The position numbers and the translations under genes are program-made. Positions 972 through 20,408 of a stretch of 20,408 bases of DNA are shown one piece after another. A model generated the notes under the pieces. The model ran no database searches. It saw nothing but the letters and a program-made list of their open reading frames with translations, and was not told the origin of the DNA. This DNA is from a virus (lineage: Duplodnaviria > Heunggongvirae > Uroviricota > Caudoviricetes): IMG/VR virus record IMGVR_UViG_2737471845_000026, positions 1 through 20,408 of that record. The stretch is one strand, 5' to 3'. Each line of letters opens with the position of its first letter. Positions within the stretch are counted from its first letter, which is position 1.

Positions 972-1700
972 TCATAAGATTGAAGCACAATTATGTAACG
1001 AAATATATTTTACAGGAGGTTCTCCATAATACCTGTGAAATACAGAAACGAAGTAAGATTTACTTGAGTAACCACACTCTTCTGCCACAGATCGCTTGAA
1101 GCAATATTGAAAATAAAGCATATTTACAGCAATTCGCATCCGTTCCTCAAGCAACAAGCGACTGAAACTATACCCTTCACCTTTCAATTTTCTTTTTAAC
1201 AAGCTTTCACTCATGTTTAACTGTATAGCAATTTCACCAAGCATCCAGTTCGCTGATATATCTGTTTGAATTATAGCCCTTACCTTAAAACTTACCCCCC
1301 TTAAACATCCTGACAAAAATAACGGTAACAGTTCATTTTTTGCAAACAAGGCAAGGCATGATAATCCAGTCATTATTGACAAATCATCGCAAGAATCCAT
1401 GTAAATACTATGATGATTGATTAAAGCCTTCGTCAATTCAGAATACTCAATGCCAGATATAAAATAAAGAGGAATATCAGTCTGATCACTAACATTCAAT
1501 TTGCACTCACGTTCAAGGTATTGGCTAACTACAAAGTCACTTATATCAGCAATTTTTACACTATCTGCATAAACACTGAACAAAGGCATTATATTTCTGG
1601 CAACCAACATAATGGTTCCAGGTGCCAGTGAAATCTTTTCTTTTTCAAGAAAAATATCTATCGGAAGACATACAAGGATAACGGAACAAGCAACATTCAT
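972..1700 (-). CDS. AraC/XylS-family transcriptional regulator, AppY-like (242 aa)
   Basis: C-terminal AraC-type HTH (ESLLKRKLKGEGYSFSRLLLEERMRIAVNML...AEECGYSSKSYFVSVFHRYYGEPP). N-terminus MNVACSVILVC resembles prophage-encoded AppY (MDYVCSVVFIC) as I recall it. Strongly AT-rich relative to its neighbours. Confidence 0.85.
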   Translation of the reverse strand: MNVACSVILVCLPIDIFLEKEKISLAPGTIMLVARNIMPLFSVYADSVKIADISDFVVSQYLERECKLNVSDQTDIPLYFISGIEYSELTKALINHHSIYMDSCDDLSIMTGLSCLALFAKNELLPLFLSGCLRGVSFKVRAIIQTDISANWMLGEIAIQLNMSESLLKRKLKGEGYSFSRLLLEERMRIAVNMLYFQYCFKRSVAEECGYSSKSYFVSVFHRYYGEPPVKYISLHNCASIL

Positions 1701-1786: not shown

Positions 1787-2836
1787 TCAAGAAAGTTTCT
1801 TCCGGATCTCCTTCAGTGTTTGTTGAAAACGCTCCGTCTCAAGCTCAACACCCATCGCCCTGCGGCCCAGCGACAATGCCGCTTTTATTGTTGAGCCTGA
1901 CCCCATAAAAAAATCCGCAACCACATCCCCCGGACGACTGCTGGCGGTGATTATCTGACGCAACATATCCGCCGGTTTTTCACAGGGAGGTTTGCCTGGG
2001 TAATACTGTACTGGCTTGTGCGTCCAGACATCCGTATACGGAACGGCAGCTGATACGGAAAAATAACGCCGCAGTGATTTATATTCCTCCAGCAGGCTGG
2101 CATATTGCCGGTTCAGTTCGCTGTATGTGCTGACCAGTCTGTGATGTTGCTGCTCCAGTTCACCGCGCTGATGCTTTTCTGCCGCTACACGTGCAAACAG
2201 CGCCTGCAGTTTACTGTAATCGGCCTCATTCGGTAACTGCCACTGACTGGTACCAAACCAGTGCGAAGCCATGTTTTTCTTTCCGGTGGCTTCCGCTATC
2301 TGTTTCGACGTTATCCCCAGTGATTCACGCGCATCACGAAAGTAAGAAATCAGCGGGGCCATGACGTGCTGTTTAAGTTCACGCCCCTTTGCCGCATAGC
2401 CGTCATTTTTTGGCTGGTATGGCCCCTGATAATGTTCGGCAAACAGAATGCGCTCTGTTGCCGGGAAATACGCCCGTAAACTTTCCTTATTGCACCCGTT
2501 CCAGCGTCCGCACGGCTTCGCCCAGATAATGTGGTTCAGCACATTAAAGCGTTCACGCATCATGATTTCGGTATCAGATGCCAGGCGATGACCACAGAAC
2601 AGGTAAAGACTTCCGGCGGGTTTTAATACCCGCCAGAACTGCGCAAGACACTGGTCCAGCCATTGCAGGTAATCAGCGTCGCCCTTCCACTGGTTATCCC
2701 AGCCCTCGGGCTTCACTTTAAAGTATGGCGGGTCTGTGACTATCAGATCGACGGAGTTTTCCGGTAAGGTCCGGATAAATTCCAGGCAATCAGCGTTGAT
2801 TAACTCACAACTGGATATTTTTACAGTATTAGCCAT
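1787..2836 (-). CDS. DNA amino-methyltransferase (N6-adenine or N4-cytosine, beta-class motif order), apparently orphan (349 aa)
   Basis: Motif IV DPPY near the N-terminus (LIVTDPPYF) and AdoMet motif I FxGxG near the C-terminus (DFFMGSGST). No restriction endonuclease candidate is adjacent. Confidence 0.85.
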   Translation of the reverse strand: MANTVKISSCELINADCLEFIRTLPENSVDLIVTDPPYFKVKPEGWDNQWKGDADYLQWLDQCLAQFWRVLKPAGSLYLFCGHRLASDTEIMMRERFNVLNHIIWAKPCGRWNGCNKESLRAYFPATERILFAEHYQGPYQPKNDGYAAKGRELKQHVMAPLISYFRDARESLGITSKQIAEATGKKNMASHWFGTSQWQLPNEADYSKLQALFARVAAEKHQRGELEQQHHRLVSTYSELNRQYASLLEEYKSLRRYFSVSAAVPYTDVWTHKPVQYYPGKPPCEKPADMLRQIITASSRPGDVVADFFMGSGSTIKAALSLGRRAMGVELETERFQQTLKEIRKKLS

Positions 2837-3330: not shown

Positions 3331-3861
3331 TTATTCTTCTTCATTGGTATTAGGCGTCGGCATTTGTCGTGACAGACCAGATGCTCTGCCCATTATGAAA
3401 ACGGATGCCAATCCTATCAGATCAACAGTAATCAGCGTTCCAGCAAAAACAGTATTACCTCTCCAGGCAAAGACGGTTGCTATCAGCAAAATTAAAAGCG
3501 TTATCGAGTAAGCCATCCATTGACCACGCCTGTCTTTTTTTATTGTTCCCGTGACCGTTGTTTTCTGCATTTCATGACGATGAGCCTGCTCTTTCTCACT
3601 TCTTGCCATTATCCGCTCAGCAGCACCTTCAACTATATCATCGTATTCACGTAGCATTGATGGTGGAGGAAGCGGACCACGGAAATAGGTTTGACTTACT
3701 ATGGCTCTAAATTGAGGTCGCTCGAGGAGCCGTTCAAGAACATTTGGATTTTCAACCAGCTCCCCTTCTATCTCTTTAGCCAGCTGTTCTGAACTCTTAC
3801 ATGAATCGTTATCGTGCAGTGGCAAGCTGGCGTTTAAGTTTTCTTGCTCTGAGTCTTGCAT
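3331..3861 (-). CDS. DUF2335-like predicted membrane protein (176 aa)
   Basis: Central motif SQTYFRGPLPPPSMLREYDDIVEGAAERIMARSEKEQAHRHE followed by two hydrophobic helices (ITLLILLIATVFAW, LITVDLIGLASVFIM); recognised as the DUF2335 family from memory. Confidence 0.6.
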   Translation of the reverse strand: MQDSEQENLNASLPLHDNDSCKSSEQLAKEIEGELVENPNVLERLLERPQFRAIVSQTYFRGPLPPPSMLREYDDIVEGAAERIMARSEKEQAHRHEMQKTTVTGTIKKDRRGQWMAYSITLLILLIATVFAWRGNTVFAGTLITVDLIGLASVFIMGRASGLSRQMPTPNTNEEE

Positions 3862-4329: not shown

Positions 4330-5151
4330 CTATCGCGTTACCTTCTTTAACTGCCACTCCGCCCATGCCTCTTCAATGTCAAACCGAACCACCAACGTAT
4401 CGTAAAAGCGCTTCACTGATTTTTTCCACGTATCAAGTGTAATAGCACTCGTCACTTTGCATATGGCATTAAATGCCTCCGTTGATGGCAGTCGTTCATA
4501 ACCACGACCGCCACAACGTTGGCAGTCCCTGATAACAGGCATCCCCCGTTTTTCCGACTCTTCACGATAAATGGCAACACCACGCCCACGGCAATCTTTA
4601 CAGGCAGTGGAAATCTCCCCCTTCCCTTTACATTCAGGACAGGAAACTTTCACCACCTCCCGGATTTTTTTCCATTCTTCCCAGTAAGACGGATACACAC
4701 CTTTCGTACACTTTGCCCATACTGGCGGCTTGCCATCCGGATACTGAACCTTGCTTGTAAAAACTTCGCTTTCAATAAATTTTTCCCCATGGCAACAGGG
4801 GCACTGCTTTTTACTCGCAGCACTACGGGCATAATCCTCAAAAGCATACGAAGCCATAATGCGCATCACTGCCGGTTTTATTTCTGCCGGAAGTTTTCTT
4901 AACGCCGCCACACTATCGCACTGACTTAATGCATAATCTGCCAGTAATTCTGTTGCCCGCACTCTGTCATTCATACTGATGCCCATTTTCCCCAGGAACG
5001 CAGAAAATCCCATCTCAGCCCGGTTCTGTGTCATGCCCTGTGCAGCCATCACATCAGTGATACTCAGTGCATCTTTTGATGTCGAGGCGGATGCATCAGT
5101 CAGGCCTGGCGATTTCGGGGAATAGTATTTCGGTAAATCTTCCAGCTTCAT
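4330..5151 (-). CDS. Late-gene antiterminator Q-like protein (273 aa)
   Basis: Sits directly downstream of rusA with an ATGA start/stop overlap, the canonical Q position. Multiple CxxC zinc-binding motifs (CPCCHG, CPECKGKG, CKDCRGRG, CQRCGGRG). Assignment rests on synteny and motifs, not alignment. Confidence 0.65.
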   Translation of the reverse strand: MKLEDLPKYYSPKSPGLTDASASTSKDALSITDVMAAQGMTQNRAEMGFSAFLGKMGISMNDRVRATELLADYALSQCDSVAALRKLPAEIKPAVMRIMASYAFEDYARSAASKKQCPCCHGEKFIESEVFTSKVQYPDGKPPVWAKCTKGVYPSYWEEWKKIREVVKVSCPECKGKGEISTACKDCRGRGVAIYREESEKRGMPVIRDCQRCGGRGYERLPSTEAFNAICKVTSAITLDTWKKSVKRFYDTLVVRFDIEEAWAEWQLKKVTR

Positions 5152-7340: not shown

Positions 7341-7496
7341 TTACTCCTCAGATTCGTAAGCTGTGAAGACAGTGACCTCCGTCTGGCCGGTTCGGATTCG
7401 TACCTCGCAGAGGTCTTTCCTCATTACCAGTGCCGTCACTATGACGGTTAAACAGATGACGATCAGGGCGATTAACATCGCCTTTTGCTGCTTCAT
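7341..7496 (-). CDS. hok: Hok/Gef-family type I toxin (51 aa), closely HokD/RelF-like
   Basis: Translation MKQQKAMLIALIVICLTVIVTALVMRKDLCEVRIRTGQTEVTVFTAYESEE is a Hok-family hallmark. SD AAGGAG 9 nt upstream. The listed 70-aa ORF is an in-frame upstream extension. Confidence 0.9.
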   Translation of the reverse strand: MKQQKAMLIALIVICLTVIVTALVMRKDLCEVRIRTGQTEVTVFTAYESEE

Positions 7497-7834
7497 AGCC
7501 AGCTTCTCCTTGCCTTTCGGCACGTAAGAGGCTAACCTACATGTGTAAAGCATGAAATTGGCCTCAGATTAATGTTAAGCGTCTTGCCGGACGCGTAATG
7601 TTAACTGGGGCTTTTCTCTGTCTGCCTTACAGTGGCATGCCCGAGGCAGACAGCCTCAAGCACCCGCAACAATCTTACCGACACCGATAAGAAAACGCTA
7701 TTTTTTATTGCCAGAACCTTCTGCCCAGGCTAATGTATCCGCGTCAGAACGGCGCAATGCGCTCGCCTGAGATACGTTTACTTGTCATTGGTGGCAACAG
7801 ATAACGGCAATTGTTATTTCTGTTTGTTTCCTTC

Positions 7835-9537: not shown

Positions 9538-10284
9538 TTACTTCTCAATTCCTGGCTGGATGACATTCGTGCGCCAGCTCTCCCAGTTAAAATTCACCCA
9601 GCGACCACCGTTCATGGTCATGCGGTCCATCACGCGCTCGCCAAGCAGCGTATTCATCGCCGTATGGTTCAGGTTCGTCAGCATCCCGACGCTGTGCATC
9701 GAGGCCGTTCTGCGATCGACTATCTGGTTCAGTGTGACCTGTTCGTTACGCGTATCCCGCTGCATACCAATTTCATCCAGGACAAGCAGGTCAACCTCAC
9801 ACAACCCCTGCAAAAATTTTTCGCCCGAGTTTTTGTTGTCGTAGTTGCCGTGTAACGCCAGCATCACATCCGCCACCGTCACCACAATCACGCTGCGACC
9901 TTTCGCCAGAAGATGGTTGCCGATGGCTGCCGCCAGGTGATTTTTTCCGGTACCCGGCTTACCGCTGAACACAAAATTTGTGCACCCGGTCATCAGCTCG
10001 TCCGCGATGGACTTCGCCTGGCTGAGTGCATGACGCTGTCCGTCGTTCTGCACCAGGTAATTCGCAAACGAACATTTCTGGTGCAACGGCTGGATACCGG
10101 AACGATTCAGAATTTTTTCCACCCGGATCTGGCGATTCTGGCGGTTAATCTCCTCGCTACGCTTTCGCCCTTCTGCAAGCTGCCACTCTCTCCACTCGTC
10201 CACTGTCCGGTACGGCGCGGTTACATGCTGCGGGGCCAGCTTACGGATGCGTTCAAGAACACCACCTGCCGCAATATTTTTCAT
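9538..10284 (-). CDS. DnaC-like replicative helicase loader (IstB/DnaC AAA+ family; Rac YdaV-like), 248 aa
   Basis: Walker [18 protein letters not shown], Walker B LLVLDEIG, and strong resemblance to E. coli DnaC along its length ([41 protein letters not shown]). Confidence 0.9.
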
Positions 10285-10290
10285 AACCCG

Positions 10291-11400
10291 TTACCCCCTG
10301 AATCCCGGCGGAATTTCGGTGTCCGGTTCAGAAATGTGATTCACACAACGCTGGTTGTTCGTGCCGCTTACCGGAATCAACCAGGGGTTTTCAAAATTCC
10401 GGTCCGGTCCAAAAAACGTCGTCGCTCGCTGAACAAATTCCGTTCCCGTTTTCCCGGTAGCCGCCAGGTATCTTGCATAACGCCTCACACCATCCATCAT
10501 GGCCTCTGGTGGCACCCCCTCGCGTAATCTGGCCTTCCAGGCACTGAATGCGGATTTCTTCGGGTTTGCCCCGGCACGCAACGGGTATTCCCGCCAGACC
10601 TGTTCGAACACATCCGGATAATCCACCCGTCCCACAGGCTGCCCGGTGTTTTCCGGGACTACCCGATCGGCTTCCCGCTGAATGGCGGAATCGGCTTCAG
10701 GCTGCTGCAGTTGGTGTGATTGTTCCGGCCTTGCGGTCATCGCCTGCTGCACAGCGCCCGAATCGGCTTTCAGCGCATACGCTGAATCGGCTTCCGGTGT
10801 CGTGCCTGCTGGCTGACCAGAATTTACGGTCTGAACATCCCCTGCCTGGTTCATGGTGTTTTTTTCGCCATGAACCATAGTGTTTTTGTCCTGTTCCTGT
10901 TCTTTCTCCTGCTCCTGTTCTTGGCTTCGAAGCCCCTTAAAAGCCCCTTCGAAGCCCCTTACAGAATTTCGGCTATTATTCCGCCTCACATCCAGATGGA
11001 AATCCGTTTTATATCTGTCGTAAAACGCTGACAGAAAAGCGTTTTCAGGTAATGATGCATACTCATTCCTGACACCTGCACAACGGTTATCGCCAGGCTT
11101 CAACGTTTCCCCAACCTGCCAGGCTGCCATTTCATGGACCCAGACCATCTCTGCATCATGGTCATAGCTACAAAAACCAGCTTCAACAGCCCTTTTAAGC
11201 CCCTTTGAAGCCCCTTCCAGACCAAGCCCGGTTTCATGAGCAAGGTATAAAACTGGCAGGTAATACAAACCCAGCATATTTGCGTGAGGGGATGTCATCA
11301 GGTAAAAAGCAACAACTTGCGCTTCTGCACCCGCCTTTCTAAGTTCTCTCCCCGTTTCTCCCAGCCAGAATCGCGGAGAAACTTTTGCGTAATCACGCAT
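10291..11400 (-). CDS. Replication initiator (O-like/YdaU-like), 369 aa from the ATG at 11400
   Basis: Immediately upstream of the DnaC-like gene (6-nt gap). SD GAGG 6 nt before ATG 11400; the listed ORF extends to ATG 11511 but that start has no SD. Contains a QEQEQEKEQEQ linker and iteron-like repeats. Confidence 0.7.
   Translation of the reverse strand: MRDYAKVSPRFWLGETGRELRKAGAEAQVVAFYLMTSPHANMLGLYYLPVLYLAHETGLGLEGASKGLKRAVEAGFCSYDHDAEMVWVHEMAAWQVGETLKPGDNRCAGVRNEYASLPENAFLSAFYDRYKTDFHLDVRRNNSRNSVRGFEGAFKGLRSQEQEQEKEQEQDKNTMVHGEKNTMNQAGDVQTVNSGQPAGTTPEADSAYALKADSGAVQQAMTARPEQSHQLQQPEADSAIQREADRVVPENTGQPVGRVDYPDVFEQVWREYPLRAGANPKKSAFSAWKARLREGVPPEAMMDGVRRYARYLAATGKTGTEFVQRATTFFGPDRNFENPWLIPVSGTNNQRCVNHISEPDTEIPPGFRG
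10930..10960. repeat. Iteron-like direct repeats (three copies of AAGCCCCTT at 11-bp spacing) inside the O-like gene
   Basis: Plus strand ...GAAGCCCCTTAAAAGCCCCTTCGAAGCCCCTT...; encodes the peptide repeat GFEGAFKGL. Confidence 0.4.
11188..11216. repeat. Second cluster of the same iteron-like motif (two full copies plus one degenerate)
   Basis: Plus strand CAGCCCTTTTAAGCCCCTTTGAAGCCCCTT, about 240 bp from the first cluster and still within the O-like gene. Confidence 0.35.
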
Positions 11401-11478
11401 GGCTACCTCATCTGGTGCCGAACCTTCCTCCGGATATAATCTGTGGTTCCCAATCGACAGAACCAGAGGAGGTTCGAC

Positions 11479-11934
11479 ATGTATTTTTTGAAAAGCCTTT
11501 ATCAGGCTCATGTATTAAATGTTGCAGCAACAAACCGCTGGTGTAATAGCCCCGAAATGCTCCCGGATTACAGAGCCTGGCTGCGCGCAGAAACATACCT
11601 TCGTCTCGACATATTGATTAGCAAACTTCAAAAAGAGACTGCATCCATTCATAACCTTCAGGGTATCGACGCTGTTCGCATTCTGGTATCGCGCCATAGT
11701 GCTCTCTCAATAATTGAAGTGCGTCATCTCTCTTTTTCTGAACTGATTTTCTTGCTTCAACCAGCTCTGGAATCAGCGAATATCCCACCGGAAGTGATCC
11801 AATACCCACCTCATGTTGACGAGCAGTTACAAGATGTGCCATACAACCAGCGTGCTGGATTGACTCCCTGCTCAGAGGCTGAATGGGATCACTCTCTGCT
11901 GAAGAAATACCAAGATTTGTATAATCCTCAATAA
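11479..11934 (+). CDS. Hypothetical protein, 151 aa, divergent from the replication operon; antisense to the 169-aa minus ORF
   Basis: ATG at 11479 preceded by a near-perfect SD AGAGGAGG with 6-nt spacing; reasonable codon usage. Overlaps 11618-12127 on the other strand, so only one of the two is likely real. Confidence 0.4.
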   Translation: MYFLKSLYQAHVLNVAATNRWCNSPEMLPDYRAWLRAETYLRLDILISKLQKETASIHNLQGIDAVRILVSRHSALSIIEVRHLSFSELIFLLQPALESANIPPEVIQYPPHVDEQLQDVPYNQRAGLTPCSEAEWDHSLLKKYQDLYNPQ

Positions 11935-12861: not shown

Positions 12862-12889
12862 ATGATACTACATAAAGTAGAATTTGCAA
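12862..12889 (-). promoter_or_regulatory. PR-like promoter with an operator palindrome in the spacer
   Basis: Minus-strand -35 TTGCAA (plus 12884-12889), 16-nt spacer, -10 TATCAT (plus 12862-12867). The spacer contains the palindrome CTAC-N5-GTAG (12868-12880). Confidence 0.5.
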
Positions 12890-12934
12890 CTACGCAAAAT
12901 AGAAATGACGAATCAAGGTAACTGCTTTAATCTT

Positions 12935-12947
12935 CTACATATGGTAG
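12935..12947. promoter_or_regulatory. Second operator-like palindrome CTACATATGGTAG, overlapping the repressor ATG
   Basis: Same CTAC-N5-GTAG half-sites and same GAA flank as the site at 12868-12880; centred 67 bp away. Confidence 0.4.
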
Positions 12948-13393
12948 AAAACGCACATAAACATCGCGCATTCGCAACAAGACTTAAGTCAGAAATGGAT
13001 AGAAAAAACAAATCCATCAAAGACTTAAGCTTATCCACGGGCGTCACATACGAAATGGCGCGGCGCTACACCCTAGGCACAGCTAAACCACGCGACGAAA
13101 AACTCGAACGAATAGCAGAATTTCTGGGAGTTGAACCTGCATGGCTGGAATACGGTCAGCTAACAGAGAAAGGAATTGAACCAGCAGAAGATTCATTTGT
13201 AACACAAAGATCTGGTTCCAATAGCAATGGTGAATTTACTGAGTTAAGTGAAGATGAAAAGCGACTGATACGAACGTTTCGGGAGTTTCCACCAGTTGAA
13301 GCCAAGAATATGCTCCTGGCTTTTGAGATGAGGCTCAAGAAACTTTACGATTTCTACGAGAAATACGCCAGCACCCCACCACCTTCTGAGTGA
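12941..13393 (+). CDS. Prophage repressor, XRE/HTH family (RacR/cI-like), 150 aa from ATG 12941
   Basis: HTH KSIKDLSLSTGVTYEMARRYTLG; divergent from the cro-like gene with operator palindromes in between. Start is ambiguous (ATG 12941 without SD, ATG 12905, or TTG 12884). Confidence 0.75.
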   Translation: MVENAHKHRAFATRLKSEMDRKNKSIKDLSLSTGVTYEMARRYTLGTAKPRDEKLERIAEFLGVEPAWLEYGQLTEKGIEPAEDSFVTQRSGSNSNGEFTELSEDEKRLIRTFREFPPVEAKNMLLAFEMRLKKLYDFYEKYASTPPPSE

Positions 13394-13489: not shown

Positions 13490-13517
13490 TTGACATATCT
13501 ACTTCAAGTAGTATCAT
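13490..13517 (+). promoter_or_regulatory. PL-like promoter with an operator palindrome in the spacer
   Basis: -35 TTGACA (13490-13495), 16-nt spacer containing CTACTTCAAGTAG (13499-13511), -10 TATCAT (13512-17). Same architecture as the PR-like promoter at 12862-12889. Confidence 0.55.
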
Positions 13518-14603: not shown

Positions 14604-15290
14604 TTTATCCTCCATTGAAGTTACTGGTTGAGAATGGAGACCACACGTGACAGCGTGTTGTCGTGCGCCGGACACGGATAAGAATCCGGCACTGACAGTT
14701 TACTGAAAGAATATATCCCTGAAAAGTCAGGGCATAACTCGAAAGCGCACGGCGGAGGTGTCTTTTCCTTAGAAGGCTTGTCGTTAGATTTCTTCGACCG
14801 TGCGCTTCCGGTTGTGGCACTCCGCGAAATGGCGCGGCGGTAAGTATGGCGGGGTTATCCTTACCCCATTAGTGGCACCGGGTTGTCAGGTTGACCATAC
14901 GCTTAAGTGACATCCCCGCTGCAACAACCCATGTTGATTACCTTTTGGCGGGTATCCGTTTTTTGTTTTCCCTTGTGATACCAGCCCTTTTTAAAGTGAA
15001 TTTTGTGATGCGGTGAATGCGGCTAAGCGCACGCGGAACAGTTAAAAAGGACAGTTGACATTCGTATTGGTTCTTATGGGTGGGTTATCTGTATCCGGCG
15101 TTAATTGTTAACTGGTTAACGTCACCTGGAGGCACCAGGCATCGCATCAACAAAATTCACTTCAGTGATGAAAGGTGAGAGAAAATGTTGAATGTAGCTA
15201 TTGAAAACCAGAACGGGTGGAATTATAGTGCACCTGCACCTCATAAAACGGGTGCCGGGATTTGCACCCCGATGATCACTAGAGCGCATA

Positions 15291-15312
15291 ACCGCGCCAA
15301 AGCGGTTTTTTT
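15291..15312 (+). terminator. Intrinsic-terminator-like hairpin plus U-tract inside the leader upstream of rha (possible attenuator)
   Basis: ACCGC-GCCAAA-GCGGT followed by TTTTTTT; embedded in a larger inverted repeat GCGCATAA...TTATGCG. Confidence 0.45.
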
Positions 15313-15478
15313 ATGCGTAAAGCGCAGCCACATTCAGATTATGGTGGGGCGTATGGGGCCGTTTTCGGGCGGGCCGGATTCTCTAGTGACCGGTAGTGCA
15401 AACCCTGTACGTCTCACCACCCATGAGATTTGCACCTACGGTGGTGAGTTTACCAACTTATCACTAGAGGCTGCCATC

Positions 15479-16033
15479 ATGGCTACTATCCCTACCCTGT
15501 CTCACCCTGACGTAACCATCGAAAACGGTCGCGCTATCACTACGTCTGTTGCGATCGCAGAGTTCTTTGGCAAACGACACGACAACGTGTTACGTGCCAT
15601 CGCAAACATTGAATGCTCAGAAAAATTTAACGCCCTCAATTTTGAGGACGTAACGTACACCGACGCCAAAGGCGAAAAACGTCCAATGTACCAAATCACC
15701 AAAAACGGCTTCGTTTTCCTGGTGATGGGCTTCACTGGCAAAAAAGCCGCTGCATTCAAAGAGGCCTACATTGCTGAGTTCGACCGCATGGAGGCAGAGC
15801 TGCGTCAGAATAACACCCCACCAACTGACAAAATAATTCCTGGCGATGGTCGCACTCTGGTTGTTCGCTTCGACGAACACGGCAATATCAAATTCACCGA
15901 AACCGTTCCTGATGGTGCAATGGTCTGTACTCTGGATACCTTCCAGTTTTATCTGGAGAAACAGGGATGGACACTTGTAAACCGGAGCGCAATTAGAAAC
16001 ATGACTGTCGAACAATTGCTGCGTATTAAATAG
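15479..16033 (+). CDS. rha: Phage regulatory protein Rha (Rha domain), 184 aa from ATG 15479
   Basis: Rha-domain signature VTIENGRAITTSVAIAEFFGKRHDNVLRAIANIE...ITKNGFVFLVMGFTGKKAAAFKEAYIAEFDRME; SD AGAGG 8 nt before ATG 15479. The in-frame upstream extension to 15185 is judged non-coding. Confidence 0.75.
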   Translation: MATIPTLSHPDVTIENGRAITTSVAIAEFFGKRHDNVLRAIANIECSEKFNALNFEDVTYTDAKGEKRPMYQITKNGFVFLVMGFTGKKAAAFKEAYIAEFDRMEAELRQNNTPPTDKIIPGDGRTLVVRFDEHGNIKFTETVPDGAMVCTLDTFQFYLEKQGWTLVNRSAIRNMTVEQLLRIK

Positions 16034-16078
16034 TTTTCTGGAATTTACTTCATATGACTAATTATTATGGAGATAATT

Positions 16079-16300
16079 ATGATTGCTCATCACTTCGGAA
16101 CTGATGAAATACCACGTCAGTGTGTGACTCCAGGCGATTATGTTCTTCATGAGGGCAGGACATATATTGCATCGGCAAACAATATTAAAAAGCGAAAACT
16201 TTATATTCGTAGCCTGACCACAAAAACATGCATAACTGGCTGCATGGTTAAAGTTTTCCTCGGTCGTGATGGATTACCTGTAAAGGCGGAGTCATGGTGA
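16079..16300 (+). CDS. Hypothetical protein, 73 aa
   Basis: ATG 16079 preceded by GGAG (7 nt); AT-rich; no motif recognised. Confidence 0.4.
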
Positions 16301-16413: not shown

Positions 16414-16551
16414 AAAAAAATATTGTAGTGAAATCTGTGCCGAAAAAGACCAGATGGCACATGAACTTTAATTAACTGACTGAACGAAACTGAATTTATG
16501 CCTGCAATGGCAGGGATTCGCTCAGCCTTAAAATAGTTATGAGGTTTATCA

Positions 16552-18987
16552 ATGAGTATTGATAAAGAAGAATTTGCACTATATTGCGAAGCAAAAAATG
16601 ACAAAGTCAGAAAACGCCTGGGAATTAAAGGCGGTTTTTACTGGACTACAGCAAAAAAATTATCTGTTGCAATCTCCCGCTGCATTACCGCAATGGATGA
16701 CAACGATTATGATGAAGACGACTTTAAAAAACCGGTCCGAGTCCATTTACCCGTTGTGAATGACCTTCCACCGGAAGGCGTGTTTGATACGGAATTCTGC
16801 AACCGATACGAAAAAGGCGGGGAAGATGGCATCACAATGGTATTTATCGCCCCATCTCCCTCTGCGCAGGACAACCAGGTCAGCACTGACAATACCAATG
16901 TTAATGGCGAAGACATGACGGAGATTGAGGAGAATATGCTACTCCCGATTTCCGGTCAGGAACTGCCCATTCGCTGGCTTGCTCAACACGGCAGCGAAAA
17001 ACCGGTAACGCACGTTTCACGCGACGAACTCCAGGCATTACACATTGCACGGGCTGAAGAACTACCAGCTGTTACTGCCCTGGCTGTTTCCCACAAAACC
17101 AGCCTGCTCGACCCGCTGGAAATTCGCGATCTCTACAAACTGGTTCGTGACACTGACAACGTTTTCCCTAATCCTGGTAATTCAGACCTGGGACTGATGA
17201 CTGCTTTTTTCGAAGCATACCTGGGCGCTGACTACACTGATCGCGGTCTGCTTACAAAAGAGTGGATGAAGGGGAATCGTGTTTCACGTATCACCCGCAC
17301 GGCTTCCGGTGCAAATGCCGGTGGCGGGAACAAAACCGATCGCAATCCGAATTTAGTACACACCTTCGATACGCTGGATGTGGAGATTGCAGCAGCCACA
17401 CTTCCGATGGATTTTAATATTTATGAAATTCCGGGCAGCGTTTATCGTCGCGCAAAAGAAATCGTCCTGAAAAGAGAAAGTCCGTTCAAAGAATGGTCCG
17501 CAGCACTTCGCGCAACCCCGGGTATTCTGGATTATTCCCGCGCCGCTATTTTTGCACTTATCCGGAGCGCATACCCTGAGTTTTATCATTACCCGGGACG
17601 CCTTCAGAGGTATATCAATGCCTATTTAACGGAGACTGATCACGAGAACCCTACCGAGGAAACTCTCACTGCTGCACGACATACACCGGAAAAAGATATC
17701 CTGGAAGAAGTTAACCGCGAACTGGCCGCTGAACGCGAAACAGAAGAAGAAAAAAATAATGAGGAAAAATCACAACCGTCTGACGCAATGGCAGATGAAC
17801 AGGCAACGACTGAAGCAATGGGACAGGATACAACTGAATATCGCCAGGACACTCAATCGCTGGATACTCAGGCACAGATAAATCCGGTTAATCAGGTAAA
17901 AGTTACCGCTGACGAAGTAAACAAAATTATGCAGGCAGCCAATATCAACCAGCCTGATGCCGACAAAATACTGGCAGTCCATCGCGGTGAATTCGTTGAC
18001 GGAATTAGCGACCCGAATGATCCGAAATGGGTTAAGGGGATTGAAACCCGCGATTCTGTGAACCAGAACCTGCCAGAATCGGAACAAAACAGCCAAAATG
18101 CGTTACAAAACGAGCCAGAAACGAAACAGCCTGAACCAGAAGAGCAACAAGAACCGGAAAAAGTCTGCACCGCCTGCGGTCAGACCGGTGGCGGCAACTG
18201 TCCTGACTGTGGCGCGGTGATGGGCGACGCAACATACAAGGAAACATTCGATGAAGAGAATCAGGTTGAAGTTCAGGAAAATGATCCGGAGGAAATGGAA
18301 GGCGCTGAACATCCACACAAGGAGAATGCTGGCAGCGCTCAGGACCACGCCAGCGATGATGAAACTGGCGAGGCGGCAGATCACTCAATTAAGGTGAACG
18401 GTCATCACGAAATCACATCCACCAGCAGGACGTGTGACCATCTAATGATCGACCTCGAAACCATGGGAAAAAACCCTGATGCCCCGATTATCTCAATAGG
18501 TGCAATATTTTTCGATCCGCAAACCGGAGATATGGGACCGGAATTTAGTAAGACTATCGATCTGGAAACTGCTGGCGGAGTCATTGATCGGGACACCATT
18601 AAATGGTGGCTGAAGCAATCACGCGAAGCTCAATCTGCCATTATGACCGATGAAATCCCGTTAGATGATGCACTGTTACAATTGCGAGAATTTATCGACG
18701 AAAACTCCGGTGAATTTTTTGTTCAGGTCTGGGGAAATGGAGCCAACTTCGACAACACGATTTTGCGCCGTTCATACGAACGGCAGGGGATCCCCTGCCC
18801 GTGGCGTTACTACAACGATCGCGATGTACGCACAATCGTTGAGCTGGGGAAAGCCATAGACTTCGATGCCAGAACGGCTATTCCATTCGAAGGTGAGCGC
18901 CATAATGCACTTGATGACGCTCGTTACCAGGCAAAATACGTTTCAGCTATCTGGCAAAAACTGATCCCGAGTCAGGCTGATTTTTAA
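16552..18987 (+). CDS. RecE-like (exodeoxyribonuclease VIII-like) protein with a C-terminal DnaQ-like DEDDh 3'-5' exonuclease domain, 811 aa
   Basis: Residues about 110-600 resemble the non-catalytic N-terminal region of Rac RecE as I recall it ([45 protein letters not shown]; zinc ribbon [16 protein letters not shown]). The last 180 aa carry Exo I (MIDLETMG), Exo II (GNGANFD) and Exo III ([10 protein letters not shown]) motifs. SD GAGG 8 nt before the ATG. Confidence 0.85.
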
Positions 18988-19051: not shown

Positions 19052-19300
19052 ATGGCAAGACTTATTCTGCTCACTGAGTGGGCAAAAGAGGAATTCAGCG
19101 ATCCGGTCCCGACTCCGGGCACGTTAAGTAAATACGCTAAAGCCGGAATGATATTTCCTCTCCCCAAAAAAGTTGGAAGACACTGGCGAGTGGATCCACG
19201 AGCTCGCTTTGTCGGAATGGTAAACAAGCCGGAGGTGATCGCCACAGATCACCCTGCTTTGAAGAGGATACTGGAAGATGGCGCGCCCGCGAAAATATAA
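19052..19300 (+). CDS. xis: Excisionase, lambda Xis-like (82 aa)
   Basis: LILLTEWAKEEF...MIFPLPKKVGRHWRVDPRARFVG parallels lambda Xis (LTLQEWNARQ...IFPPPVKDGREYLFHESA); overlaps the int start by 23 nt as in lambda. Confidence 0.7.
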   Translation: MARLILLTEWAKEEFSDPVPTPGTLSKYAKAGMIFPLPKKVGRHWRVDPRARFVGMVNKPEVIATDHPALKRILEDGAPAKI

Positions 19301-20408
19301 AACCGAAGTTCCGGGACTATCTCCGTATTTTGACAAAAGAAATAACAAAGTTTACTGGCGTTACAGGCATCCCATAACAGGCAAAAATCACGGTCTCGGC
19401 AGTATTGACCAGAAACTGGCAGAAACTATTGCAGCAGAAGCGAACAGCCGTCTTGCCAGGCAGCAAATGGAACAAATGCTCAGTCTGCAGGAGAAAATTA
19501 TTAATGATACCGGCGGTTCATCAACCGTTTCCATTTTTCTGAATAATTACAGAAAAATTCAACAGGAAAGATATGAAAACGGAGAGATCAAACTCAACAC
19601 GCTGAAACAAAAAGCGGCCCCTCTCAGGGTATTTGATGAACGTTTTGGCACCAGACCGTTAGATGCCATAACCGTAAAAGATGTGGTATCGGTGCTGGAA
19701 GAGTACAAGGCCAGAGGACATAACAGAATGGGACAAATTTTCAGGAAGGTACTGATCGATGTTTTCCGGGAAGCTCAGCAAACGGGCGATGTCCCGCCAG
19801 GCTTTAACCCTGCAGAATCGGCAAAAAAACCGCAGGTGCGGATATCAAGACAGCGACTGACTTTTGATGAGTGGATGATGATTTATAACGCAGCGGAAAA
19901 GGATGGTTATTTTTTACAGCGCGGCATGCTGCTGGCACTGGTGACAGGCCAGCGCCTTTCAGATATTTGCAAAATGCAGTTTTCGGATATCCGGAATGGT
20001 TATCTTCATGTCGAACAGCAAAAAACAGGAACCCGGATTGCCATCCCTCTGGCTCTGCGTTGCGATAAATTAAATCTCACCCTGGATGATGTGGTGTCAT
20101 CCTGTCGCGATAGCGTTCTTAGTCCGTGGCTATTGCACCATCATCACGCGAAAGGGACAGCTAAGCGCGGCGGGATGGTTAAGCCAGCAACGTTAACCGT
20201 TGCATTTAAAAAAGCCCGGGATTCTGTGGATTACAACTGGCGTGCTAATGGCACCCCACCCTCTTTCCATGAGCAGAGATCTTTATCAGAAAGATTGTTC
20301 AGAGAACAGGGAATTGATACCAAAATTTTGCTGGGCCATTCGAATCAAAAAATGACCGATATTTACAACGATGCACGTGGTAAGGAGTGGAAAAAACTGG
20401 TCATTTGA
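19278..20408 (+). CDS. int: Tyrosine integrase, lambda Int family (376 aa)
   Basis: N-terminal arm-binding-like region and a C-terminal catalytic region resembling lambda Int (LTFDEWMMIYNAAE, TGQRLSDICKMQFSDI, HEQRSLSERLF, LLGHSNQKMTDIYNDARGKEW). Stop TGA is the last three bases of the window. Confidence 0.9.
   Translation: MARPRKYKTEVPGLSPYFDKRNNKVYWRYRHPITGKNHGLGSIDQKLAETIAAEANSRLARQQMEQMLSLQEKIINDTGGSSTVSIFLNNYRKIQQERYENGEIKLNTLKQKAAPLRVFDERFGTRPLDAITVKDVVSVLEEYKARGHNRMGQIFRKVLIDVFREAQQTGDVPPGFNPAESAKKPQVRISRQRLTFDEWMMIYNAAEKDGYFLQRGMLLALVTGQRLSDICKMQFSDIRNGYLHVEQQKTGTRIAIPLALRCDKLNLTLDDVVSSCRDSVLSPWLLHHHHAKGTAKRGGMVKPATLTVAFKKARDSVDYNWRANGTPPSFHEQRSLSERLFREQGIDTKILLGHSNQKMTDIYNDARGKEWKKLVI

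Follow-up and report, generated by a model that had tools for sequence, protein, structure and literature searches.

The 20,408-nucleotide window analysed here (positions 1 to 20,408 of IMG/VR virus record IMGVR_UViG_2737471845_000026, Caudoviricetes) is the early region of a lambdoid prophage, and it contains an exonuclease gene encoding a protein of 811 amino acids (aa), in which a RecE-type N-terminal scaffold is followed by an acidic linker with a zinc ribbon and by a DEDDh exonuclease domain. The protein is a domain-swapped variant built of two known families, and its sequence is already annotated in databases. NCBI lists an identical protein under the name "exonuclease [Escherichia coli]", for which Pfam matches to PF06630 and PF16473 are precomputed, and the name given to such proteins there is often "3'-5' exoribonuclease domain-containing protein" or "exonuclease". 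No paper on a fusion of the RecE scaffold with a DEDDh domain was found in the open-access literature and bioRxiv, and the fusion gene, though annotated, appears unstudied as a system. Here we report its architecture, its intact catalytic residues, the purifying selection acting on it, its synteny and its lack of a RecT partner.

Domain architecture of the exonuclease

The gene and the parts of its product are arranged as follows, all on the plus strand.

16541-16544 (+): Shine-Dalgarno sequence GAGG, 7 nt 5' of the ATG at 16552 (sequence reading)
16552-18987 (+): exonuclease gene, ATG start, 811 aa, 0 internal stops (open reading frame list, translation)
16561-16851 (+): predicted domain D1, small alpha/beta (aa 4-100; AlphaFold2)
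16720-17118 (+): Pfam PF06630 Exonuc_VIII match (aa 57-189; E 4.3e-37)
16933-17295 (+): predicted helical domain D2 (aa 128-248; AlphaFold2 predicted local distance difference test, pLDDT, 81-93)
17338-17691 (+): predicted helical domain D3 (aa 263-380; AlphaFold2 pLDDT 75-94)
17692-18441 (+): acidic low-complexity linker (aa 381-630), mostly predicted disordered (composition, AlphaFold2)
18166-18210 (+): C4 zinc ribbon C539-x2-C542-x7-C550-x2-C553 (motif positions)
18388-18393 (+): junction, formed by the last RecE-homologous codon (aa 613 = RecE 591) and the first codon of the unrelated C-terminal part (end of the BLASTP match)
18439-18954 (+): DEDDh (DnaQ-fold) 3'-5' exonuclease domain, PF16473 Rv2179c-like (aa 630-801; Pfam E 1.5e-67)

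When the protein was compared with Rac RecE of E. coli K-12 by BLASTP, aa 58-613 aligned with RecE residues 50-591 at 335 identities in 564 positions (59%), and nothing significant was found outside these ranges in either protein. A sequence-only reading of the window had described the N-terminal 600 aa as RecE-like; this holds for aa 58-613, while the first 57 aa have no match in Rac RecE itself. In the NCBIfam model NF007259, the RecE equivalog, aa 1-613 match model positions 1-602 of 877 with 909.5 bits, which is under the equivalog cut-off of 1269 bits, and a Pfam scan of the 811-aa protein gave no match to PF12684, the family of the RecE nuclease. The RecE nuclease domain has been placed at residues 564-866 (review PMC11611040), and the homology break at aa 613 (RecE 591) coincides with the boundary of the RecE catalytic fragment. 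The earlier proposal that a DEDDh domain stands in place of the RecE nuclease is therefore borne out by the point at which homology stops. The Pfam and BLASTP matches on which this architecture is based lie many orders of magnitude above chance expectation. An internal start at M632, which would give a stand-alone nuclease, was considered and rejected, as no Shine-Dalgarno sequence lies at a usable distance.

The AlphaFold2 model of the N-terminal part, built from an alignment of 39 sequences with 29-96% identity to the query, consists of three confident blocks (D1, D2 and D3) with disordered loops between them. Across the scaffold, conservation is widest in D3: even the most divergent representatives align to it, and it carries the motifs RT..GA.AGG...TDR and PGILDYSRA. 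No structural neighbour of D2 was found in PDB or BFVD. To our knowledge, no function is known for the N-terminal part of RecE (560-600 residues) as such. According to review PMC11611040, which cites Fu et al. 2012, this part aids linear-linear recombination.

The linker is acidic, as had been noticed from the sequence, with 15 Asp or Glu per 40 residues in windows near aa 377-421 and aa 564-607, and its pLDDT is below 50 at aa 400-440 and aa 440-640 in the two models. The ratio of nonsynonymous to synonymous substitutions (dN/dS) is 0.2-0.5 in the linker, and a stretch at approximately aa 450-500 is conserved and common to RecE and YdfE-type proteins. The zinc ribbon proposed earlier had been given as CxxC-x9-CxxC; both CxxC pairs are present and are kept in Rac RecE, and the spacer has to be corrected to x7. 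The ribbon gives a weak Pfam DZR match and is modelled with low confidence.

A complete DEDDh active site in the C-terminal domain

The C-terminal domain matches PF16473 with 227.2 bits against a cut-off of 27, covering model positions 2-177 of 177. The catalytic set is complete, with D634 and E636 in Exo I, D734 in Exo II, and H784 and D789 in Exo III, in agreement with the Exo I/II/III set with His that had been read from the sequence. These five residues align with D7, E9, D119, H186 and D191 of phage T4 DexA, and the DEDDh catalytic residues are conserved across homologues. Kang et al. (NAR 2025, PMC12153337) describe T4 DexA as a 3'-5' DNA exonuclease of the DEDDh type; in a profile search of PDB it was the only solved relative (8KEL/8KEN, E 1.1e-18; approximately 30% identity), and phmmer against T4 DexA gave E 1.8e-6. 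The AlphaFold2 model of the C-terminal part has a pLDDT of 60-88, and its top Foldseek matches are RNase T, 3'hExo and Orn, with a probability of 0.94-0.99 and an E of only about 0.03; a weak RNase_T match was also seen in the Pfam scan of this part. The alignments to RecE and to the DEDDh families proposed in the sequence-only reading thus gave a BLASTP match to RecE, a PF16473 match and a residue-by-residue mapping onto DexA, and both the PF16473 match and the structural neighbours speak for a DEDD fold. On the basis of family membership, and with T4 DexA as the closest solved relative, a 3'-5' polarity is predicted for the domain.

The protein differs from Rac RecE (exodeoxyribonuclease VIII, 866 aa; PF06630 and PF12684) in its catalytic part. 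The two have a homologous N-terminal scaffold (59% identity over 556 aa), an acidic linker and a zinc ribbon in common, and in the early-left operon their genes fill the same slot, between kil and the xis-int pair. The catalytic domain of Rac RecE, however, is a PD-(D/E)XK 5'-3' double-stranded DNA exonuclease, whereas that of the present protein belongs to the unrelated DEDDh fold and presumably has the opposite polarity. T4 DexA differs in turn: it is a stand-alone protein of 227 aa from a virulent phage, with extra loops and without scaffold, linker or zinc ribbon. Of the DexA residues proposed to recognize 5-hydroxymethylcytosine (5hmC), W152 corresponds to Y754 here and D169 to A768, the alignment at D169 being uncertain, and the tetramer residue D90 is kept as D706.

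EcD, a stand-alone DexA homologue of E. coli, cuts only 5hmC DNA in vitro and protects against T4, an activity termed "HREX" (PMC12153337). The published EcD primer led to a candidate for it, an open reading frame (ORF) of 189 aa present in six IMG/VR contigs. Residue 78 of its product is Ala, as in EcD, where Ala78 replaces the DexA tetramer residue, and the 3' end of the ORF equals the reverse primer except for one base; for these two reasons we take this ORF to be EcD or a near-identical allele. EcD (GenBank HAK9828821.1) is 189 aa long, stands alone, is encoded in E. coli-associated viral contigs, and belongs to the same Pfam family as our C-terminal domain, with 38% identity over 183 aa. 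Because W152 and D169 are replaced, D90 is retained and EcD is only 38% identical, the HREX specificity is not transferable to the window protein, which on sequence grounds is a relative, not a demonstrated member, of the DexA/HREX functional group. PADLOC-DB v2 defence models gave no match to the window protein at E ≤ 0.01, and its relatives had only a weak match to a generic Cas-associated DEDDh model.

The closest stand-alone relative of the domain is a 190-aa Rv2179c-like exonuclease of the lambdoid phage mEp460 (60% identity). It has no N-terminal scaffold, starting four residues before the Exo I motif (MNNLMIDLET), and its gene sits two small ORFs before int, towards the distal end of the early-left region, with two minus-strand ORFs also in between. 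A second fused form is the YdfE-type exonuclease of phage HannyBb (823 aa; locus L004, 4269-6740), which shares linker, zinc ribbon and DEDDh domain with the window protein from approximately aa 440 onwards at 68-100% identity per 40-aa window, 99% in the nuclease domain. Its synteny is likewise dicB-ydfD-exo-xis-int. Its first approximately 260 aa, in contrast, are a different module (YdfE), and its aa 262-430 are only about 39% identical to RecE-type scaffolds.

The DEDDh form has no RecT partner

Among the 30 larger ORFs of the window that were submitted to Pfam and PHROG scans, no RecT, Bet or Erf was found. The whole window was also searched by tblastn for Rac RecT, the RecT of Salmonella phage SPN3UB, and the lambda proteins Bet, Exo and Gam, and no match was obtained. 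The excisionase gene xis starts 64 nt past the exonuclease stop, leaving no room for an annealase gene, so the earlier statement that no RecT/Bet-like annealase lies between the exonuclease and xis stands.

We then compared the partners of both forms in 15 loci by local tblastn. In the loci with a scaffold joined to a PD-(D/E)XK nuclease (K-12 Rac, Salmonella phage SPN3UB, and E. coli, Shigella and metagenome-assembled genome, MAG, loci), recT lies directly downstream in 7 of 7. In those with a scaffold joined to a DEDDh domain, the window included, RecT, Bet, lambda Exo or Gam was found within the sampled flanks in 0 of 8. The gene order in the DEDDh loci is dicB or kil, (ydfD), exo, xis, int in all eight, with three types of xis/int and an exo-xis gap of 60-80 nt. 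Counted across E. coli genomes, RecT follows the RecE nuclease domain almost 1:1 (1842 against 1827 places) and does not follow the DEDDh domain (8111). The locus comparison and the genome counts together indicate that the DEDDh version as such lacks RecT, and that this is no local accident.

The protein is therefore not a RecE: it has neither the RecE nuclease domain nor a RecT partner, and it scores under the equivalog cut-off. Nor does it form a SynExo, that is, a 5'-3' PD-(D/E)XK exonuclease beside an annealase, as the nuclease is of the DEDDh type and the operon holds no annealase.

The gene is common and under purifying selection

A DNA search of 5426 complete E. coli genomes gave the following counts.

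Whole gene, at least 80% covered: 1275 genomes of 5426
DEDDh-domain DNA: 4069 genomes, 8111 places, at most 7 per genome, mostly 95-99% identity
Rac RecE nuclease domain: 1736 genomes, 1827 places
Rac recT: 1749 genomes, 1842 places

The DEDDh domain is present in approximately 75% of complete E. coli genomes, against 32% for the RecE nuclease domain. Far from being rare, the gene is among the commonest of E. coli lambdoid prophages, and with such a share of the genomes, often in several copies, the enzyme is among the most abundant uncharacterised prophage enzymes of the species. The architecture PF06630 plus PF16473 was also found in Salmonella enterica, several Citrobacter species, Enterobacter and Atlantibacter, with 31-60% identity in the N-terminal part. 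This wider taxonomic range was obtained from protein searches; a pattern-based contig scan gave 11 loci, nearly all from Escherichia or Shigella, a narrow range due to the patterns having been derived from a single protein. Thousands of full-length variants are present in NCBI, and the gene occurs in phage genomes deposited as isolates (HannyBb, vB_EcoS-640R1). Among phage records, the C-terminal domain was matched in 768 and the full-length fusion in only 7.

One 22.9-kb contig (L011, JAGZPX010000007.1), binned as a Veillonella parvula MAG, carries a dicB-ydfD-exonuclease-xis-int block. Its exonuclease has 89-99% protein identity to that of the window across the domains and its other genes are near E. 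coli versions; almost certainly the contig stems from an Escherichia prophage and was wrongly binned with V. parvula.

With two E. coli homologues (Nei-Gojobori), dN/dS was 0.18-0.21 for aa 1-613 and 0.08-0.13 for aa 614-811, and both halves are under purifying selection. The N-terminal part is also mosaic: aa ~121-240 (16912-17271) are approximately 90-98% identical to Rac RecE, while the flanks show 20-65% (40-aa windows), an identity peak that is a signature of recent recombination with Rac-like prophages.

Broken members of the family were also seen. The ydfE pseudogene of the K-12 Qin prophage (L008, 3079-3999) equals the first 256 codons of the HannyBb type at 100% identity and is truncated by the insertion sequence (IS) IS2; Qin therefore once had YdfE-N, linker, zinc ribbon and DEDDh exonuclease. 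A RecE-type scaffold cut by an IS after codon 474 is found in E. coli ECMA0423 and Shigella flexneri SFBU1023 (L017/L018, 8001-9425), with a lambda Gam-like ORF 1.2 kb downstream of it, and in another S. flexneri locus (L020, 9106-9671) the DEDDh domain is frameshifted. The DLP12 exoD was tried as a remnant of the family and rejected, tblastn giving no match to either the window or the HannyBb protein; it resembles a lambda-Exo-type fragment by eye only.

A third C-terminal domain on the same scaffold

The scaffold family is small, with 263 representatives at E ≤ 0.001 among 1.84 billion 50%-identity clusters. When representatives of at least 450 aa were classed locally by their C-terminal domain, approximately 22 had the RecE nuclease and approximately 17 the DEDDh domain, and the rest had neither, many of them being truncated. 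Pfam found no other nuclease domain in the 40 representatives without either known C-terminal domain, among which many are truncated. Nine (P0128, P0178, P0196, P0197, P0200, P0213, P0235, P0255 and P0266) have in common a third domain of approximately 250 aa, with the motif CDGEA.KKSLTDA.KKALS.LGF.AD..LGLYD. It corresponds to PHROG 2489/7838, annotated "exonuclease" by propagation, and also stands alone in Vibrio, Pseudomonas and Pectobacterium phages, where it is annotated "exonuclease" or "DNA repair protein". Its best Pfam match in 5 of 7 is Rad52_Rad22, sub-threshold in each (best E 0.0025, 18.2 bits against 20.3), and sequence and profile searches of PDB gave no match. From this resemblance, the third domain may be an annealase fused to the RecE scaffold, in which case the scaffold would bear three kinds of recombination effector.

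Prophage surroundings of the gene

On the plus strand the window encodes, in order, an HTH repressor, a PHROG-2151 protein, an Ash/Rha-type regulator, a Kil-type inhibitor, the exonuclease, an excisionase and an integrase.

12884-13393 (+): helix-turn-helix (HTH) repressor in a DicA/RacR-like position, head of the early-left region (Pfam HTH_3)
16067-16300 (+): Kil-type septation inhibitor, 77 aa, upstream gene of the same operon (phrog_294, E 2e-36)
19052-19300 (+): excisionase (Pfam PF07825, phrog_629)
19278-20408 (+): lambda-type tyrosine integrase, running off the window end (Pfam Arm-DNA-bind_1, Phage_integrase)

The exonuclease, with its stop at 18987, is the last gene of the early-left operon. 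A terminator-like site and then the best plus-strand promoter-like site (13490-13517) lie 3' of the HTH repressor, and a consensus scan showed no plus-strand terminator-like site between kil and exo. The numbers of promoter and terminator sites near the gene were no higher than in shuffled controls or than expected by chance, for which reason the site at 13490-13517 is only a candidate promoter.

Rfam matches at gathering level place an isrK Hfq-binding RNA at 15236-15312 (+) and a C4 antisense RNA at 15337-15424 (+), both within the 5' part of the Ash/Rha-type ORF 15185-16033. The site, which lies in the early-left operon 5' of kil and the exonuclease, resembles an immunity/antirepressor module of the P1/P7 c4-icd-ant or Salmonella IsrK type, and the Ash/Rha-type protein may start 3' of these RNAs.

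Encoded on the minus strand are regulators resembling YdaS/YdaT, a replication module that includes a DnaC-like protein, and also DUF1627, DUF968, RusA, antiterminator Q, a DNA methylase and an AraC-type regulator. A 406-aa ORF (10291-11511, -) occupies the replication-initiator position just upstream of a DnaC/IstB-like gene (9538-10284); it has no Pfam match at E ≤ 0.01, and its equivalent in a related prophage is annotated "DNA-binding protein". A sok antitoxin RNA was matched at 7494-7665 (-) with 115 bits, with a small ORF nearby (7341-7553, -), and the two presumably form a hok/sok type I toxin-antitoxin module in which the ORF encodes a Hok-type toxin. In the related E. coli prophage L001, hokD is annotated in the region corresponding to the sok site. 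Downstream of antiterminator Q (4330-5151), in its direction of transcription, are the ORFs 972-1700 (-), 1787-2836 (-) and 3331-3861 (-). This region, which holds a DUF2335 membrane protein, an N6/N4 DNA methyltransferase and an AraC-family regulator and has a GC content of 36-38% near 500-2000, is probably cargo (moron) DNA.

Proposed function and alternatives

With moderate confidence, we propose that the protein is an annealase-independent, Mg2+-dependent 3'-5' DNA exonuclease that would be made on induction and delivered by its scaffold to DNA ends. The early-left (pL/dicB-type) operon of the lambdoid prophage encodes a modular nuclease, which would be expressed on prophage induction and co-transcribed with the division inhibitors kil/dicB. 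Its two-metal DEDDh site would attack DNA from 3' ends in the presence of Mg2+ and would do so without a dedicated annealase, while the RecE scaffold would bring this nuclease of opposite polarity to the scaffold's own site or partner, probably linear DNA ends. We infer its polarity, its DNA substrate, the timing of its expression and the role of the scaffold from the comparisons above. A DNA substrate is suggested by the fact that DexA and EcD, the only characterised relatives, are DNA enzymes, and linear DNA ends are a plausible target of the scaffold because full-length RecE outperforms the bare nuclease in linear-linear recombination. Lacking a dedicated annealase, the enzyme would not be the nuclease half of a two-component recombinase of the RecET/Red type. 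Its purpose may be to trim the 3' tails of intermediates of replication or recombination, to recombine DNA without an annealase by 3'-5' resection, or to attack the DNA of competitors or of the host.

Several points weigh against this proposal. The AlphaFold2 model of the C-terminal part is of moderate confidence only, and an RNA substrate is possible because PF16473 is named after an exoribonuclease (M. tuberculosis Rv2179c). Structure searches of PDB and BFVD gave the scaffold no recognisable fold or partner, which makes delivery to DNA ends an analogy only. Expression confined to induction is read from gene order, the promoter scan being uninformative. Finally, a recombination role is not obvious, because a 3'-5' nuclease destroys the 3' tails used by RecA and annealases.

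An unlikely alternative is an inter-phage defence of the HREX type, in which the DEDDh domain would selectively degrade the incoming modified DNA (5hmC or related) of T-even-like phages, so that the prophage would shield its host or itself from competing phages. It draws on the protection of E. coli from T4 by EcD, which cuts only 5hmC DNA in vitro (PMC12153337), on the 38% identity of the EcD candidate to the domain, and on the extraordinarily wide occurrence and conservation of the domain in E. coli prophages, as would be seen for a gene useful to the host. Against it, the residues assigned to 5hmC recognition in DexA are not kept (W152 to Y754, D169 to A768), and the tetramer residue D90, lost in EcD, is kept as D706. 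Moreover, the gene lies at the end of a repressed early-left operon and not in the position of a lysogen-expressed moron, PADLOC gave no match, and, EcD being a stand-alone protein, a scaffold of 620 aa would go unexplained.

Next in likelihood, and likewise improbable, is annealase-free recombination, in which 3'-5' resection of linear DNA would bare complementary 5' tails that anneal spontaneously or with host factors, making the enzyme a polarity-reversed counterpart of RecET in the same genomic slot. In vivo cloning of short homologies in E. coli depends on the 3'-5' exonuclease XthA. The scaffold, linker and operon slot are the same as those of RecE, the sub-threshold Rad52_Rad22 domain found on the scaffold suggests a carrier of recombination effectors, and review PMC11611040 credits the scaffold with boosting linear-linear recombination by RecE. 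On the other hand, 3'-5' resection removes the strand used by the known phage annealases and RecA, and the Rad52-like assignment lies below the Pfam threshold, without support from PDB.

We consider it quite unlikely that the enzyme is directed at RNA, trimming or degrading the 3' ends of host or phage transcripts, small RNAs or the genomes of single-stranded RNA phages, in the manner of Rv2179c or TONDO. PF16473 was defined on an exoribonuclease, the weak RNase_T match points the same way, RNase T, 3'hExo and oligoribonuclease come nearest to the model in structure, and "3'-5' exoribonuclease" is a frequent name at NCBI. Prophage ISG20-like DEDDh nucleases with auxiliary domains, called TONDO, reportedly defend against MS2 and Qbeta (2026 preprint, PMC13344964). 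The TONDO proteins, however, are a different and shorter group, having been chosen as ISG20-like and smaller than 500 aa, and their authors set them apart from other defence-associated DEDDh domains (PMC13344964). The only PDB relatives detectable by sequence are DNA exonucleases (DexA), EcD is also a DNA enzyme, and sugar specificity is not predictable from the DEDDh fold.

That the gene is a decaying dead fusion, left when a defective prophage lost recT and the RecE nuclease domain by deletion, is close to refuted: early regions of prophages are deletion-prone and broken copies exist (the IS-cut L017/L018, the frameshifted L020, the IS2-cut K-12 ydfE), but dN/dS is well under 1 in both halves, the catalytic residues are all intact, Salmonella, Citrobacter, Enterobacter and Atlantibacter retain the architecture at 31-60% identity, and the gene is found in deposited phage isolate genomes and in 8111 copies in E. 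coli genomes.

Implications for the RecE scaffold family

As a sequence feature, this is an ordinary, common and annotated gene. What would surprise specialists is that it is more abundant than RecE, that RecT co-varies so cleanly with the type of nuclease, and that the N-terminal part is selected independently of the nuclease. As the N-terminal part is kept under selection while the nuclease has been swapped and RecT lost, the scaffold has a function independent of both the RecE nuclease and RecT.

A broader reading, which we offer tentatively and regard as possible rather than probable, is that the RecE N-terminal part is a general recruitment scaffold of enterobacterial temperate phages with interchangeable effectors for DNA ends. 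These effectors would be a PD-(D/E)XK nuclease, always with RecT, a DEDDh nuclease, never with RecT, and possibly a Rad52-like annealase, and the DEDDh version would constitute a second pathway of end processing or recombination, of opposite polarity and independent of an annealase. If this is true, the DEDDh pathway is commoner in E. coli than RecET, at 75% against 32% of complete genomes. RecET and lambda Red underlie recombineering, and tools for recombineering or phage resistance are a possible practical upside. The identity of the substrate would reveal an annealase-free route of end processing, an anti-phage weapon similar to DexA/HREX, or an action on RNA, and it would give a handle on what the RecE scaffold binds.

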